This document shows, in pieces, positions 5,071-47,445 of a stretch of 59,136 nt of DNA. Under the pieces are notes generated by a model. The model ran no database searches and was not told the origin of the DNA. It was given only the letters and a program-made list of their open reading frames with translations. Location: contig CALRGS010000001.1 of the NCBI GenBank assembly GCA_943357975.1, forward strand, positions 1-59,136. The letters run 5' to 3'. The DNA is from Candidatus Nomurabacteria bacterium (GTDB lineage Bacteria; Patescibacteriota; Minisyncoccia; Phycocordibacterales; UBA1006). The first letter of the stretch is position 1, and each line of letters starts with the position of its first letter. A program made the position numbers and the translations under genes.

Positions 5071-5083
5071 ATATTTTTATTGA

Positions 5084-5134
5084 CCCTCTCCACGATAGTG
5101 GAGAGGGTGGTTTCCGTAAGGAAACCGGGTGAGG
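5084..5134 (-). repeat. REP-like hairpin element, family A, copy 1 (between rsmH and the ftsL-like gene)
   Basis: CCCTCTCCAC-GATA-GTGGAGAGGG, then TTTCC-GTAA-GGAAA, then CCGGGTGAGG. Matches 10785..10833 and 44353..44408 in inverted orientation. Confidence 0.8.
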
Positions 5135-7087: not shown

Positions 7088-7993
7088 ATGATTACGCTCC
7101 ATAAAAATAACCACCTCGTTTGGGTTGACCTAGAAAATCCGACTTCCGAGGATATTGCCAGTATTATCAAGGAATACGCGGTCCATCCGACTTGGGCAAG
7201 CGAACTCCTCAGTCCATCAGAACGTGCAAAAACCGATACCAACGAAACCACCTTTTATGCCGTCCTTCACTACCCCAACCACCCCTCTCGCCATAGTGAT
7301 GGTCGTGAAATAGAGGTTGACTATATTGTCTCAGAAAAGTTTTTAATCACTGCGCACTACACCCCTATTGATACCTTCATTGAATTCGAAAAAAAATTTG
7401 ACGTCGCAAGCAGTTTAGATCGAATGCAGATTAAAACTGGTGCTGAATTATTTCTCTCGTTGAATAATCAATTGTACCGAGGTCTCCGCGAAGAACTTGA
7501 GCCATTCAGAAAAGAAGCCAAGAAAATTGAATCTGAAATTTTCCAAGGACATGAGTTTCATATGGTAAAGGAGGTTTCCATGCTCGGCAGTCGCCTCCTT
7601 GATTTTAGACAATCATTACGTCCACATAAAATTATTTTGAAATCACTTGAGTTTCAAGCTCCAAAACTATTCCCACACGTACTTGCAACTGAAGATAAGA
7701 TTTTCCGAGAATATTTCCGTGTGGAATCTGCACTTGAAAATATTCGAGAACTCCTCAAGGAGCTTCGCGATACTAACGACTCACTCCTTACTGCAAAAAA
7801 CAATGAGGTAACCAAAAAACTTACCTTGATGGCATTCGTTACCTTCCCGCTTACCCTTGTGGCAACCATACTCCTTGCTCATAATGCACCTAGTATGTTC
7901 CAAGGCATTAACGGTTTTTGGACCATTGTCGGAATTCTCGTAGTATTGTTTCTCGGTATGCAAATATACTTTACCTATAAAAAGTGGATTTAG
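7088..7993 (+). CDS. CorA-family divalent cation transporter-like protein (GMN motif replaced by AHN)
   Basis: ORF trimmed to MITLHKNNHLVWVDLENPT. CorA-like cytoplasmic domain plus 2 C-terminal TM helices (FPLTLVATILLAHNAPSMF). Confidence 0.7.
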   Translation: MITLHKNNHLVWVDLENPTSEDIASIIKEYAVHPTWASELLSPSERAKTDTNETTFYAVLHYPNHPSRHSDGREIEVDYIVSEKFLITAHYTPIDTFIEFEKKFDVASSLDRMQIKTGAELFLSLNNQLYRGLREELEPFRKEAKKIESEIFQGHEFHMVKEVSMLGSRLLDFRQSLRPHKIILKSLEFQAPKLFPHVLATEDKIFREYFRVESALENIRELLKELRDTNDSLLTAKNNEVTKKLTLMAFVTFPLTLVATILLAHNAPSMFQGINGFWTIVGILVVLFLGMQIYFTYKKWI

Positions 7994-13465: not shown

Positions 13466-13533
13466 GCCTGCTTCGGTTAAGCTATGCAGGATACGACAAG
13501 CTTTCCGCGACCGCGAAATACTTGTACAAAGCT

Positions 13534-13561
13534 ATTATATTCTTTGTTTTAAAGGTGTCAA
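13534..13561 (-). promoter_or_regulatory. predicted promoter of the 13465-dnaK unit
   Basis: Minus strand: TTGACA(13556-13561)-16-TATAAT(13534-13539). Confidence 0.6.
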
Positions 13562-13573
13562 CCCCATACTAAT

Positions 13574-13601
13574 TTGACACCAAACTCGAATCTGTTATGA
13601 T
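13574..13601 (+). promoter_or_regulatory. predicted promoter of small RNA copy 1
   Basis: TTGACA(13574-13579)-16-TGtTATGAT(13596-13601). It sits back to back with the dnaK-unit -35. Confidence 0.6.
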
Positions 13602-13607
13602 GACACC

Positions 13608-13699
13608 ATGCCTGTGGGGCGAGAAATCTCTTTCCCTGGCTCGGCTAACCAAGCTGAAGACAGGCATTATTAAAAAATCATCCTTCGGGATGATTTTTT
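13608..13699 (+). ncRNA. candidate structured small RNA, copy 1 (three-way junction plus intrinsic terminator); class unknown
   Basis: P1 AUGCCUGU(13608-13615)/ACAGGCAU(13660-13667), hairpin a 13616-13636, hairpin b UCGGCU-AACCA-AGCUGA 13641-13657, terminator ATCATCC-TTCG-GGATGAT-U5 at 13677-13699. There is no plus-strand CDS downstream. Homologous to 46566..46645. Confidence 0.55.
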
Positions 13700-14070
13700 A
13701 ATGGTATCAAATCTCGTTTTCCTGTTATCCAGCCTGGAATAATTGATAAGAACGTATAGGATCCATCTCCTAATTTCATAACAACTACTTTATATTTTCT
13801 TTCTTGAACTATTGCAATAAAACAAAAGAATTCTTTTTCTGTGTTTTCATACTCTTGAAGCGTCCCTGATTTTTGAATAATTTCTGAAACAAAATCAAGG
13901 GCTTCAAATCGTTGTTTAATAATCTTCTTACTCCTCATACCTTTTTCCAATTTCCAAATAAGATGTTTAAATCCTCGAGACCTAAAAGACACTTCCTGTT
14001 CAAGGTATGGACAAAAGACTGATTCAAGTTTTTTGTACTTCTCTCGAAGAGGCTCAATAAATCCATGCAT
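13678..14070 (-). CDS. orphan protein family X, copy 1 (130 aa), convergent with small RNA copy 1
   Basis: Paralog of 46644..47012, sharing CP.L..E..F...GF.HLI.K...RF..L..V..I...KVV..KL. The stop codon lies inside the shared terminator hairpin. Confidence 0.7.
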   Translation of the reverse strand: MHGFIEPLREKYKKLESVFCPYLEQEVSFRSRGFKHLIWKLEKGMRSKKIIKQRFEALDFVSEIIQKSGTLQEYENTEKEFFCFIAIVQERKYKVVVMKLGDGSYTFLSIIPGWITGKRDLIPLKNHPEG

Positions 14071-14148
14071 CTTTATATCCTACCAAACCGGGATAAAATC
14101 CATATCAATTTTTTCTCAAGAAATTCTCAAGAAATCTCTATCTCAACC

Positions 14149-44411: not shown

Positions 44412-45317
44412 TTACATCGCCATAATCTTTTCTACTGCCATAGCCATTAGCTGAGTTACGTCGTCATACATCGTAAGGTCTGCAATTTCTTCCATTCCAA
44501 ACCATTTCACATCATCAAGACCCCCTCTCTCTTCCTTGAGTTTCAAAGGTTGGTATTCAGCCCTAGCTAAGTAATACAATACATGTTTTCGCACCGGACC
44601 ATTTTCAGGATGATGGGCAATGTATTCATTCTCACCAATTTTTTCAAGAATGTCTACATCGATTCCAATTTCTGACTTAATTTTTGCCTGAGTTCCTTCA
44701 ATTTCTCCGAGAGCAGCATCGATACCTCCTTTTGAAAGTGTCCAATATCCAAATACATCATGTACCATAGCAAAACGAACCGTTCCCGCTTCATCTTTAG
44801 AGAACACAACGGCGCCTCCTTTAATTTCTACCGGATATTGTGATGGATCAAGTGCAACATGGGGCTTTTTCTTCTTAGAAACCTGTTCTTTCCCTGGTTC
44901 ACCAATTTCCTTGTAAATAGCACCAAGTACCCCGTTAATAAACGGACCTGATTTTTCTCCACCAAATGCTTTTCCAAGCTCAATAGCCTCGTTGATCGCA
45001 ACTTTTGGAGGCACGTGTTCACGATCCCCAAAAAGGAGCTCATATAATCCCAATCGCAAAATATTACGATCAACAACCGATATTTTTTCAATCGGCCAAT
45101 CAGGAGCAGCTTTTTCAATAATCTCATCCAATACCTTCCTCTTGTTCACTACATTTTTCGTCGTTTCCTTGATAAATGTAGGGTCATCAATACCCGCACT
45201 AAACTCACCGAGGCAATGCTCGAGAGCTGCATCTGCACGCGTCTCGTCAAACCCATTAAAATCGAGTTCGAAGAGGGCTTGCATAATAATTGAACGTGCA
45301 ACGTGTCGATGTGACAT
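44412..45317 (-). CDS. nusB: NusB-like antitermination factor fused to a C-terminal Nudix-fold domain
   Basis: N-terminal ~140 aa is NusB-like (RSIIMQALFELDF..NRILRLGLYELLF). The C-terminal ~150 aa shows the Nudix pattern (GGAVVF..W.LSKGG..E..G) with a degenerate Nudix box. Confidence 0.7.
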   Translation of the reverse strand: MSHRHVARSIIMQALFELDFNGFDETRADAALEHCLGEFSAGIDDPTFIKETTKNVVNKRKVLDEIIEKAAPDWPIEKISVVDRNILRLGLYELLFGDREHVPPKVAINEAIELGKAFGGEKSGPFINGVLGAIYKEIGEPGKEQVSKKKKPHVALDPSQYPVEIKGGAVVFSKDEAGTVRFAMVHDVFGYWTLSKGGIDAALGEIEGTQAKIKSEIGIDVDILEKIGENEYIAHHPENGPVRKHVLYYLARAEYQPLKLKEERGGLDDVKWFGMEEIADLTMYDDVTQLMAMAVEKIMAM

Positions 45318-46381: not shown

Positions 46382-46531
46382 GGGGTTAGTATACCAAACC
46401 CACCCAAGAAACCATCTTGCAAAATATTGTTAACTATTCTCTATTTAGAGCATCCAAATAGAGAAATTTACTAAGGATCATGGTCGGAGCAAGCCACATG
46501 GTAAGATGTGATCTATTTCGTTTTTGGGAAC

Positions 46532-46559
46532 TTGCATCCTGTTCTGTTTTGTATATACT
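46532..46559 (+). promoter_or_regulatory. predicted promoter of small RNA copy 2
   Basis: TTGCAT(46532-46537)-16-TATACT(46554-46559), then 6 nt to the AUG-initial transcript. The spacing is the same as in copy 1. Confidence 0.45.
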
Positions 46560-46565
46560 GATCTC

Positions 46566-46645
46566 ATGCTTGCGAGGATAAAACCTCTATCGGCATTGTA
46601 GCTGATGGCAAGCATACTAATGGATCCCTCTCGGAGGGATTTTTT
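46566..46645 (+). ncRNA. candidate structured small RNA, copy 2 (three-way junction plus intrinsic terminator)
   Basis: P1 AUGCUUGC(46566-46573)/GCAAGCAU(46608-46615), hairpin a GAGG-AUAAAA-CCUC 46574-46587, hairpin b AUCGGC-AUUGUA-GCUGAU 46589-46606, terminator GGATCCCTC-TCG-GAGGGAT-T5 at 46622-46645. Confidence 0.55.
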
Positions 46646-47012
46646 AGTAACTCATTCTATCCATTACACTAAAGAAATGCTTCTCTGTATTATTTAATTT
46701 TCTTATGACTACTTTTATTATTCTATTATCTTGCAGCTTACTGAGCTCCCAAAAAACTGCCGTGTCGCCTTGGCATACAAAAATTTCAACGTTTTCATCT
46801 TTCAAAATATCTATTACCTCTCGAAGTAAATGAAATCTTCTTATTTGATCTTGTATAGGTCTTGGAATACGTCCTTTTCTTATTAGATGATTAAACCCTG
46901 CTTTAGTAAAAAATATTTTCTCATTATTTAAAACTGGACACGATATTGATCCAATGCTTGAATACAATATTTTAGTCTCTTGTTTTAATCTTTTATAGTA
47001 TTCCAATTGCAT
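46644..47012 (-). CDS. orphan protein family X, copy 2 (122 aa), convergent with small RNA copy 2
   Basis: ORF 46644..47162 trimmed to MQLEYYKRLK.. for three reasons: it aligns with the start of copy 1, the upstream terminator 47098..47134 lies inside the long ORF, and the promoter region is homologous. Confidence 0.65.
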   Translation of the reverse strand: MQLEYYKRLKQETKILYSSIGSISCPVLNNEKIFFTKAGFNHLIRKGRIPRPIQDQIRRFHLLREVIDILKDENVEIFVCQGDTAVFWELSKLQDNRIIKVVIRKLNNTEKHFFSVMDRMSY

Positions 47013-47097
47013 AATAACCAAGCCTAGCAAACCAGGATAAATTCTAGATAAATTATTTCTCAAGTTTTGATAAGGTCTCCTTTTAGATTCCTTGCAA

Positions 47098-47134
47098 CGA
47101 AAAAAGCCCTGTTCACTCTGTGAACAGGGCTTTT
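47098..47134 (-). terminator. intrinsic terminator after the 47143..47445 gene
   Basis: GCCCTGTTCAC/GTGAACAGGGC stem followed by a T-run on the minus strand. Confidence 0.75.
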
Positions 47135-47142
47135 CAAAAAAC

Positions 47143-47445
47143 TCAGAAAAAGATACCTCCAATGTTTATTGCGGACAGGACAATCCATAGGTATAGTAAA
47201 CCAATACGATACCATACAAATGAATTATAGGGACTACTATCTTTCACGAGTCGAGGAGCTTCAATGAGCATTATCACAGCAATAACACATGAGGCATAAA
47301 GAAACTGAACAAGATTTTGTGAATAGAGTACCTCTATAGGTATTCCGCTATATCCACTGTATTCGATAAACTTGTAGCACAGCGTGAAAATTATCGTACA
47401 ACTTGGTGCGATAACATAAATAAAAATCATTATGAATGTACCCAT
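47143..47445 (-). CDS. hypothetical membrane protein (100 aa, 3 TM)
   Basis: ORF, divergent from dnaE. Confidence 0.55.
   Translation of the reverse strand: MGTFIMIFIYVIAPSCTIIFTLCYKFIEYSGYSGIPIEVLYSQNLVQFLYASCVIAVIMLIEAPRLVKDSSPYNSFVWYRIGLLYLWIVLSAINIGGIFF

Follow-up and report, generated by a model that had tools for sequence, protein, structure and literature searches.

A three-way-junction RNA family paired with an LPD3-like protein gene in Patescibacteria, present in two paralogous copies in a Candidatus Nomurabacteria contig

Type III toxin–antitoxin systems (ToxIN, CptIN and TenpIN) are two-gene modules in which a terminator separates the sequence of a small, structured RNA from the gene of a small protein. 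Their antitoxin is an array of 34–36-nucleotide (nt) direct repeats, located upstream of the toxin within one operon (PMC3401426). Phages are also known to carry RNAs that mimic such antitoxins (ToxI; PMC3594212). Here we analyzed a 59,136-nt stretch of contig CALRGS010000001.1 (assembly GCA_943357975.1) from a Candidatus Nomurabacteria bacterium, hereafter the window, in which a two-gene module that is conserved among Patescibacteria occurs twice, as paralogs. In this module a structurally constrained, independently transcribed RNA is obligately linked to the gene of an LPD3-like protein. The module resembles the type III systems in its composition, but its RNA is a single 50-65-nt three-way junction that has its own promoter, usually converges on the protein gene and contains no repeat array. 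A second precedent is provided by the convergent type I systems par/Fst, txpA/RatA and bsrG/SR4, in which the RNA and protein genes share or overlap a terminator. The overlap in the module is, however, minimal (2 nt in copy 2 and none in the loci L019, L154 and L225), it is RNA structure and not complementarity that is conserved, and the protein is a soluble, basic polypeptide of about 120-160 amino acids (aa) with a globular alpha+beta model rather than a membrane peptide. The module works like a type III or a type I system at best, and is a member of neither.

The second of the two copies (copy 2) has the higher score with the covariance model (CM) of the RNA family described below, and its locus contains the following features, where P1 to P3 are the helices of the junction:

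46532..46559, + strand: promoter of the copy-2 RNA, TTGCAT-16-TATACT, read from the sequence, with a 6-nt gap to P1
46566..46615 (50 nt), + strand: copy-2 three-way-junction RNA core, from the fold z-score, CM match and covariation, with the strand given by G·U pairs
46616..46649, + strand: intrinsic terminator of the copy-2 RNA (stem 46622-46641, six T at 46640-46645), from the sequence, the fold and inverted repeat I4
46644..47012, - strand: gene of the copy-2 protein, which starts at M51, has 122 aa and is a divergent LPD3-like domain standing alone, from the family profile (E = 3e-44 over 46653-47000), homolog alignment and an AlphaFold2 (AF2) model
47013..47066, - strand: promoter region of the copy-2 protein gene, with a motif common with copy 1 (TTGAGAAA...TTTATCCYGGTTTGSTAGG), from sequence comparison
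47098..47134, - strand: terminator of the upstream gene for a 100-aa membrane protein (15-bp perfect stem plus T-run, 47102-47134; inverted repeat I1), which marks the boundary of the unit and lies outside it

In the copy-2 RNA, P1 is an 8-bp helix (AUGCUUGC/GCAAGCAU), P2 is GAGG-AUAAAA-CCUC and P3 is UAUCGGC-AUUGUA-GCUGAUG, the latter with G·U wobbles. The 91-nt stretch that contains them has a minimum free energy of -39.5 kcal/mol (z = -5.6), which was equalled by none of 200 shuffles, and the RNA core scores 61.7 bits with the CM (E ~1e-15). Its promoter matches the consensus at 8 of 12 positions, which is under the threshold of a generic promoter scan, and is located where homologous loci have near-consensus promoters. 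The terminator arms, GGATCCCTC-TCG-GAGGGAT, are followed by six T, and the stop codon of the convergent protein gene (46644-46646) has two bases in common with this T-tract; the hairpin has no good T-run on the minus strand. The two hairpins, the promoter 6 nt before the RNA and the overlap of terminator and stop codon had all been recorded, at these positions, by a first-pass annotation of the window, which differed only in giving the T-run as five residues instead of six.

The same annotation had suspected that the 172-aa open reading frame (ORF) called mechanically for the copy-2 protein is too long, with homology to copy 1 beginning at M51. This holds, and M51 is the start, as the ORF contains the minus-strand terminator of the upstream membrane-protein gene, and homologs and the family profile align only from M51 onward, leaving a gene of 122 aa at 46644-47012. 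For its transcription, either TTGAGA-18-TATCCT is used or an extended -10 element, TGnTAGGCT, that ends 8 nt 5′ of the ATG; the latter promoter, if used, would produce a near-leaderless mRNA.

Copy 1 shows the same layout of promoter, RNA, terminator and convergent gene at 13574-14070, as had been noted previously:

13574..13601, + strand: promoter of the copy-1 RNA, TTGACA-16-TATGAT with a TG extension (11/12), 6 nt before P1
13608..13667, + strand: copy-1 three-way-junction RNA, of the UCGGCU-AACCA-AGCUGA subfamily with unpaired junction bases (fold z = -6.0; CM 30 bits)
13669..13702, + strand: bidirectional terminator of the copy-1 RNA, within the last codons of the convergent coding sequence (inverted repeat I4, 15-nt perfect arms, A and T runs on the flanks)
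13678..14070, - strand: gene of the copy-1 protein (130 aa), a paralog of that of copy 2 (profile E = 9e-34; weak Pfam LPD3 match, 0.0026)
14071..14134, - strand: region with the promoter of the copy-1 protein gene, containing a perfect tandem repeat of 11 nt (TTCTCAAGAAA x2, + strand, 14113-14134; direct repeat D8)

The copy-1 RNA (13608-13667 plus the terminator) adopts the same fold as that of copy 2, and the two proteins share 30% identity across 104 residues (E = 2e-6). Beyond the window, phased TTTATC / TTCTT(T/G)A repeats are found just 5′ of the protein gene in many family members, and an extended -10 (TGnTAnnnT) often ends just 6-9 nt before the ATG. These upstream repeats and the placement of the -10 suggest operator sites and near-leaderless mRNAs, respectively.

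Both RNAs belong to a family that is well defined by base pairing. The pattern TCGGC-N3-9-GCTGA occurs exactly twice in the window, where 0.34 occurrences are expected, and both are in the two RNAs; a CM built from 24 RNAs of protein-adjacent loci also matches only these two sites in the window and, in the loci, only the gene-adjacent sites. Covariation was assessed in 71 CM matches, which correspond to 58 distinct sequences. In these, 93.9% of cells are paired compared to 81.8% in shuffled and 33-52% in slid-partner controls, and compensatory double changes are seen in 15 of 20 pairs (178 cells in total). Every pair of P1 and P2 covaries, and covariation in these two helices is strong. By contrast, the P3 helix core, UCGGC/GCUGA, is almost invariant; in P3, the U·G at the junction is fixed, as is a G·U then G-C. 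Read from the complementary strand, these conserved wobbles would turn into C·A mismatches, and the RNA is therefore read opposite to the protein-gene strand. The junction is nearly all paired, few unpaired bases are conserved, and the loops vary in length and sequence. A near-consensus sigma-70 promoter (at least 9/12) lies 3-12 nt, and mostly exactly 6 nt, before P1 in 49 of the 66 family RNAs with enough upstream sequence, as opposed to 2% of control positions, and most of the 66 also have a terminator, consisting of a hairpin and then a T-run. Judging from these signals, this is a stand-alone small RNA gene of ~75-90 nt, probably strongly expressed, the transcription of which apparently starts at the first base of P1.

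The RNA family with its dedicated LPD3-like partner in Patescibacteria is apparently new. Rfam 15 produced no match at gathering score anywhere in the window, none at E <= 10 across 46400-47200 and none at E <= 1 for the RNAs of loci L007, L009 and L231, while a search for tRNAs and transfer-messenger RNAs found none in the window. No description of the module was found in Rfam 15 or in the literature searched (LPD3, Patescibacteria RNA motifs, PDC-M04). Several other identities for the RNA were considered and discarded. Neither a hammerhead, whose catalytic core (CUGANGA...GAAA) is located in the junction strands, nor another small self-cleaving ribozyme fits, as the CUGAUG is paired within P3, there is no GAAA junction strand and no Rfam ribozyme matches, and k-turn and C/D-box readings were rejected upon inspection by eye. 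A small ORF within the RNA was also rejected; both window copies begin with AUG, others with GUG, GUA or UGU, and this variation follows the base pairs. Finally, P2 is complementary to the region 5′ of the protein gene over 12/13 nt in copy 1 and 8 nt in copy 2, and since this complementarity is not kept between the copies it was taken as chance.

How tightly are RNA and protein gene linked? A genome scan limited to one genome per species yielded 21 protein loci, all from Patescibacteria (Taylorbacteria, Staskawiczbacteria, Paceibacterota and records labelled 'Saccharibacteria'). At 19 of these loci an RNA of the same fold, with the core CUAUCGGC-loop-GCUGAUGGC, is located just downstream on the opposite strand; at L019 the RNA is upstream of the protein gene, and L021 is cut off by the contig end. 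Together, 20 genome loci, L226, L228, L230, L231, L234, L235 and L236 and the four more divergent members L238-L241 constitute 31 protein-first loci with readable flanks, and in all 31 no more than about 120 nt separate the RNA from the gene. Hence the definition of the module, a three-way-junction RNA with a UCGGC/GCUGA P3 beside an LPD3-like gene, describes both window copies and every one of these loci, and no protein gene that lacks the RNA was encountered among them. In diverse Patescibacteria, more than 60 loci repeat the pairing, the fold, the promoter geometry and, mostly, the convergent orientation, and RNA and protein subfamilies have co-diverged (see below), bearing out the earlier proposal of a functional unit as opposed to a recent duplication. 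The convergent orientation that had been described as kept is common and not obligatory; at L019, L154 and L225 the RNA is upstream and divergent, so pairing of the two genes needs no antisense overlap.

The reverse scan, in which metagenomes were searched with a strict P3 pattern, returned 84 stretches, 47 of them strong CM matches. About 37 loci have an adjoining protein gene, usually convergent and with 15-47 nt from the P1 end to the end of the coding sequence, and four are at contig ends and uninformative. Six, however, are orphans with room for a protein gene but none present: L143 (plus its variant L222), L159, L167, L193, L211 and L215. Several of the orphan RNAs keep 11-12/12 promoters and terminators, and in L159, L193, L211 and L215 promoter and terminator are intact. 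An identical 50-nt RNA is found in the orphans L159 and L193 and in the paired loci L156, L157 and L169, with L143 one base off, and the flanking terminators have diverged between these orphan (L143, L159, L193) and paired loci. As a separate observation, the orphan RNA of L211 (223-272) converges on an ORF (308-868) that resembles a PIN-domain (VapC-like) protein.

In the lineage of L153, L172 and L181, the protein has suffered an in-frame internal deletion of profile positions about 25-82, with loss of GFNHLIRKGR...RRF, while the RNA is intact (63.8 bits); the close relative L149 encodes a full-length protein. An RNA copy (48 bits) is also present on the 49-kb phage contig IMGVR_UViG_3300025736_002256 (L030 = L170) at 5079-5128 on the minus strand. 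It is flanked by an intein-containing portal gene and a second gene with an intein, is not accompanied by an LPD3 gene in the vicinity and has no terminator. The ~130 nt directly after this copy form a second structured stretch, with the long-range pairing UAGAGUAGU...ACUACUCUA and two internal hairpins. With a loose RNA pattern, nearly all matches in IMG/VR were chance, as 80 loci checked with the CM contained one true match. Lastly, L008/L208 and L015 have two RNA genes per locus, and at L018 and L147 two RNA units are arranged head to tail, 3-6 nt apart, and would be co-transcribed. In summary, the RNA occurs without the protein, whereas the protein was never found without the RNA among the 31 protein-first loci.

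The protein partner is a small, basic, stand-alone LPD3-like domain. LPD3 is one of 40 'large polyvalent protein-associated domains' without assigned function (Iyer et al. 2017, PMC5512222). Whereas the copy-2 protein has no match to Pfam LPD3 (PF18798) and that of copy 1 reaches 18.4 bits (0.0026), below the cut-off of 27, 12 of 21 homologs match at E <= 0.01, the best at 5.4e-8. The AF2 model of the copy-2 protein (predicted local distance difference test score 95.9, predicted template-modeling score 0.87) is confident and combines a long N-terminal helix with a beta-hairpin, two further helices and a meander sheet of four strands. Among viral models Foldseek matches it over nearly its full length to one entry only, an LPD3 fragment from a polyvalent protein of a podovirus (template-modeling score 0.58). 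By these similarities in sequence and structure, the family is best described as a divergent branch of LPD3. It differs from the LPD3 of phage and conjugative-element polyvalent proteins in that the domain is alone, chromosomal, restricted to Patescibacteria and paired with an RNA gene, and in that the window proteins fall under the Pfam cut-off. The copy-2 protein has about 20 close relatives; a full profile search gave 1294 clusters (50% identity) at E <= 1e-3, 791 of them at E <= 1e-10, and the best 150 of the 1294 clusters consist of solo proteins with lengths of about 80-215 aa. Searching the PDB sequences with a profile found no match, NCBIfam gave none, and PHROGs and PADLOC matches were marginal at most. 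Across 79 diverse members G39, H42, R51 and S115 are invariant, and Y17, F35, K46, R59, W88 and F113 nearly so. The basic and polar residues in this set fit a nucleic-acid binding or cleavage site.

The RNAs divide into two or three subfamilies that track protein subfamilies, and the two window copies fall in two distinct ones. RNAs of the copy-1 type conform to RUGCYUGU-P2-(U)GG-(A/C)UCGGCU-AACCA-RGCUGA-(C/A)G-ACAGGCAY, and orthologs of the copy-1 RNA are present in L231, L234, L236 and L238-L241. A further subtype, related to the copy-1 type, has CUCA-type loops, and what all subtypes have in common is the UCGGC/GCUGA helix. In the proteins, the copy-1 subfamily contains the motif GFKHLIWK compared to GFNHLIRK in the other. 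These subfamily-specific motifs indicate that RNA and protein diverged together.

Both copies also occupy conserved positions. Protein P0002, which is 56% identical to the copy-2 protein, is encoded between dnaE and rnhB-nusB/NUDIX-rnc-smc, as in the window, and its RNA is identical to that of copy 2 in P1 and the P3 loop. The copy-1-type proteins P0173, P0177, P0174 and P0213 (55-64% identity) are encoded between PaaX/ABC-transporter genes and dnaK, again as in the window. A relative with both paralogs is suggested by L235 and L238, which stem from one sample. As both copies are syntenic with their orthologs and no terminal repeats or target-site duplications were found at the window units, the duplication is old and both copies have been vertically maintained. 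These positions indicate that, in this lineage, the module is a fixed part of the chromosome that is passed on vertically, and not mobile.

The neighborhoods contain further features of interest. In the window, the 301-aa ORF at 44412-45317 (- strand) is a NusB-NUDIX fusion, from Pfam matches on the matching gene call, and the same fusion is present in L235. At 13505-13561, a conserved element, CCGCG-NN-CGCGAAA...CTTGTACAAG, with a 10-bp palindrome, is placed between the copy-1 RNA promoter and a perfect 12/12 minus-strand promoter (13561..13534) of the operon encoding a small membrane protein and dnaK. As this element also lies 5′ of dnaK in L231-L234, it is probably a heat-shock operator. 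In L236, a relative of the window organism, a PemK/MazF-type toxin gene is found between dnaK and dnaJ (7266-7661).

What might the module do? The reading that we favor, with a probability of about 0.4, is that it acts in a type III-like manner, the RNA serving as antitoxin and the protein as toxin, with an abundant RNA that sequesters a weakly expressed effector. The protein would bind its cognate RNA via the P3 helix (UCGGC/GCUGA, with the G·U then G-C) and the junction, and H42, K46, R51, R59 and S115, the invariant basic and polar residues, would provide the contacts from the protein side. A parallel is found in ribosomal protein S15, which recognizes, both in 16S rRNA and in the leaders of rpsO, a three-way junction together with a G·U/G-C motif. 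As in the S15 site, the junction of the module RNA is beside a helix with an invariant G·U then G-C in the same 5′-GG/CU-3′ orientation, a signature typical of recognition by proteins, and the P3 G·U/G-C step next to the paired junction would be a protein-recognition site used by the neighboring protein. This is an analogy only, as the distance from junction to motif and the protein both differ and there is no sequence similarity. When bound, the abundant RNA would sequester and neutralize (or gate) the weakly expressed protein, a putative nucleic-acid-targeting effector and possibly a metal-independent RNase, and such neutralization of an effector protein by an RNA is what would give the pair the logic of a type III system. 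The protein would be released if the RNA were lost or diluted, and an RNA copy carried by a phage would serve as a decoy.

We favor this type III-like reading for several reasons. First, the RNA can be found alone and the protein never is, an asymmetry that includes an RNA-only copy on a phage contig and that is shared with type III systems; the protein can also decay while the RNA is retained, as in L153, L172 and L181. Second, the RNA promoter is strong and that of the protein weak or near-leaderless, predicting an RNA excess such as type III systems have, and the RNA units, as in those systems, are sometimes tandem. Third, cognate pairs co-diverge. Finally, the phage-borne RNA parallels the known ToxI mimic (PMC3594212). 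It is also conceivable, though we consider it unlikely, that the module represents a new RNA-protein toxin–antitoxin or anti-phage class specific to Patescibacteria, in which a three-way-junction RNA is the antidote to an LPD3-fold effector and the phage RNA is a decoy.

A number of findings weigh against the type III-like reading. Both copies hold fixed housekeeping positions over deep divergence, which distinguishes the module from type III systems and is unusual for a toxin–antitoxin or defense module. The base-for-base conservation of orphan RNAs suggests that the RNA may have a role of its own, and there is only one phage example of the RNA. The protein does not resemble a toxin either: no match to the ToxN, CptN or TenpN endoRNases was found in Pfam, NCBIfam, PADLOC or the PDB, by sequence or fold; Foldseek identified no solved structure in the PDB below E = 0.03 and matched no known toxin or RNase fold; and LPD3 is absent from the likely enzymatic domains listed by Iyer et al. 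(PMC5512222). The link to phage defense is weak, as 3 of 79 family members match PDC-M04B, a candidate phage-defense component, in PADLOC (best E = 1.4e-4), and the literature searched contains no description of the PDC-M04 candidate system. Moreover, the protein family has no relatives in IMG/VR, among INPHARED phages or among PLSDB plasmids, and a phage or plasmid origin of the protein was rejected on this ground.

The fixed positions of the two copies suit, at least as well, a regulatory or housekeeping ribonucleoprotein of the host, in which the RNA would be the active component, as a trans-acting regulator or a decoy, the protein would be its chaperone, stabilizer or processing factor, and neither would be toxic. 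The retention of housekeeping positions by both modules in relatives with about 55-65% protein identity, the conservation of orphan RNAs together with their promoters, the chromosomal location of a family that is absent from the plasmid and phage collections searched, and a small, basic protein with no detectable catalytic fold are all in keeping with such a particle. A small basic protein dedicated to a structured, terminator-bearing small RNA is likewise seen in FinO/FinP and in ProQ with its small RNAs; these show no homology to the module, however, and in the module the gene pair is adjacent and co-inherited and no antisense target has been identified. Yet no conserved single-stranded seed is evident, since the loops vary and the conserved part is a helix, and a ribonucleoprotein of this kind would explain neither why the protein never occurs without the RNA while the reverse is seen, nor why the basic motif was lost in frame with the RNA kept. 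We regard it as doubtful, but as the main rival of the type III-like reading.

Antisense control of the type I kind, in which a convergent RNA overlaps the 3′ end of the mRNA and destabilizes the mRNA or prevents its expression by pairing or transcriptional interference, would account for the convergent layout of most loci, with only 15-47 nt from the RNA core to the end of the coding sequence, and for the location of the RNA terminator within the last ~10 codons in the copy-1 subfamily. As the copy-2 hairpin lacks a good minus-strand T-run, the mRNA may in addition read through antisense of the RNA gene. Such a mechanism is nevertheless improbable: there is no overlap in L019, L154 and L225, where the RNA is upstream and divergent, orphan and phage RNA copies exist, the copy-2 overlap is just 2 nt and the protein is not a small hydrophobic peptide. 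Further, the strong covariation and strand-specific wobbles point to a folded RNA and not to a mere complement.

Less probable still is that the junction senses a ligand or signal and that its terminator gates read-through antisense transcription into the protein gene. Riboswitch control of antisense RNA is known, and the layout, with a compact conserved junction and then a terminator that faces a gene, is aptamer-like. In the junction, however, nearly every base is paired and conserved unpaired bases are few, the folds of copies 1 and 2 reveal no alternative anti-terminator pairing, orphan and divergent RNAs have nothing to read into, and many of the terminators are bidirectional. A small mobile or selfish insertion unit, the independent insertion or mobility envisaged by the first-pass annotation, could be imagined from the compact size of the unit (about 0.55 kb), its two copies per 59 kb, neighbors that vary across distant lineages and an adjacent tRNA gene that is occasional and not systematic, but is very improbable and largely refuted by the orthologous positions of both copies, the lack of terminal repeats and of the target-site duplications for which a search at the unit borders had been proposed, the absence of a recombinase and the absence of the family from the phage and plasmid collections searched.

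Patescibacteria, the ultra-small bacteria of the candidate phyla radiation (CPR), constitute a large share of bacterial diversity, are mostly uncultured, and their small RNAs are barely known. The present analysis adds to them a well-supported structured RNA family beyond Rfam 15 that comes with a dedicated partner gene, so that just two small synthetic parts suffice to test a concrete biochemical hypothesis. For LPD3, which is an orphan domain in the polyvalent proteins of phages and plasmids, it also provides a first functional lead, namely RNA recognition. If the toxin–antitoxin reading is true, it would extend protein-RNA antitoxin systems by an RNA fold, a protein fold and a gene architecture that are all new. 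If the module is indeed a new class, LPD3 would receive its first function, in RNA binding or RNA cleavage, and a phage-encoded RNA decoy would have been identified.

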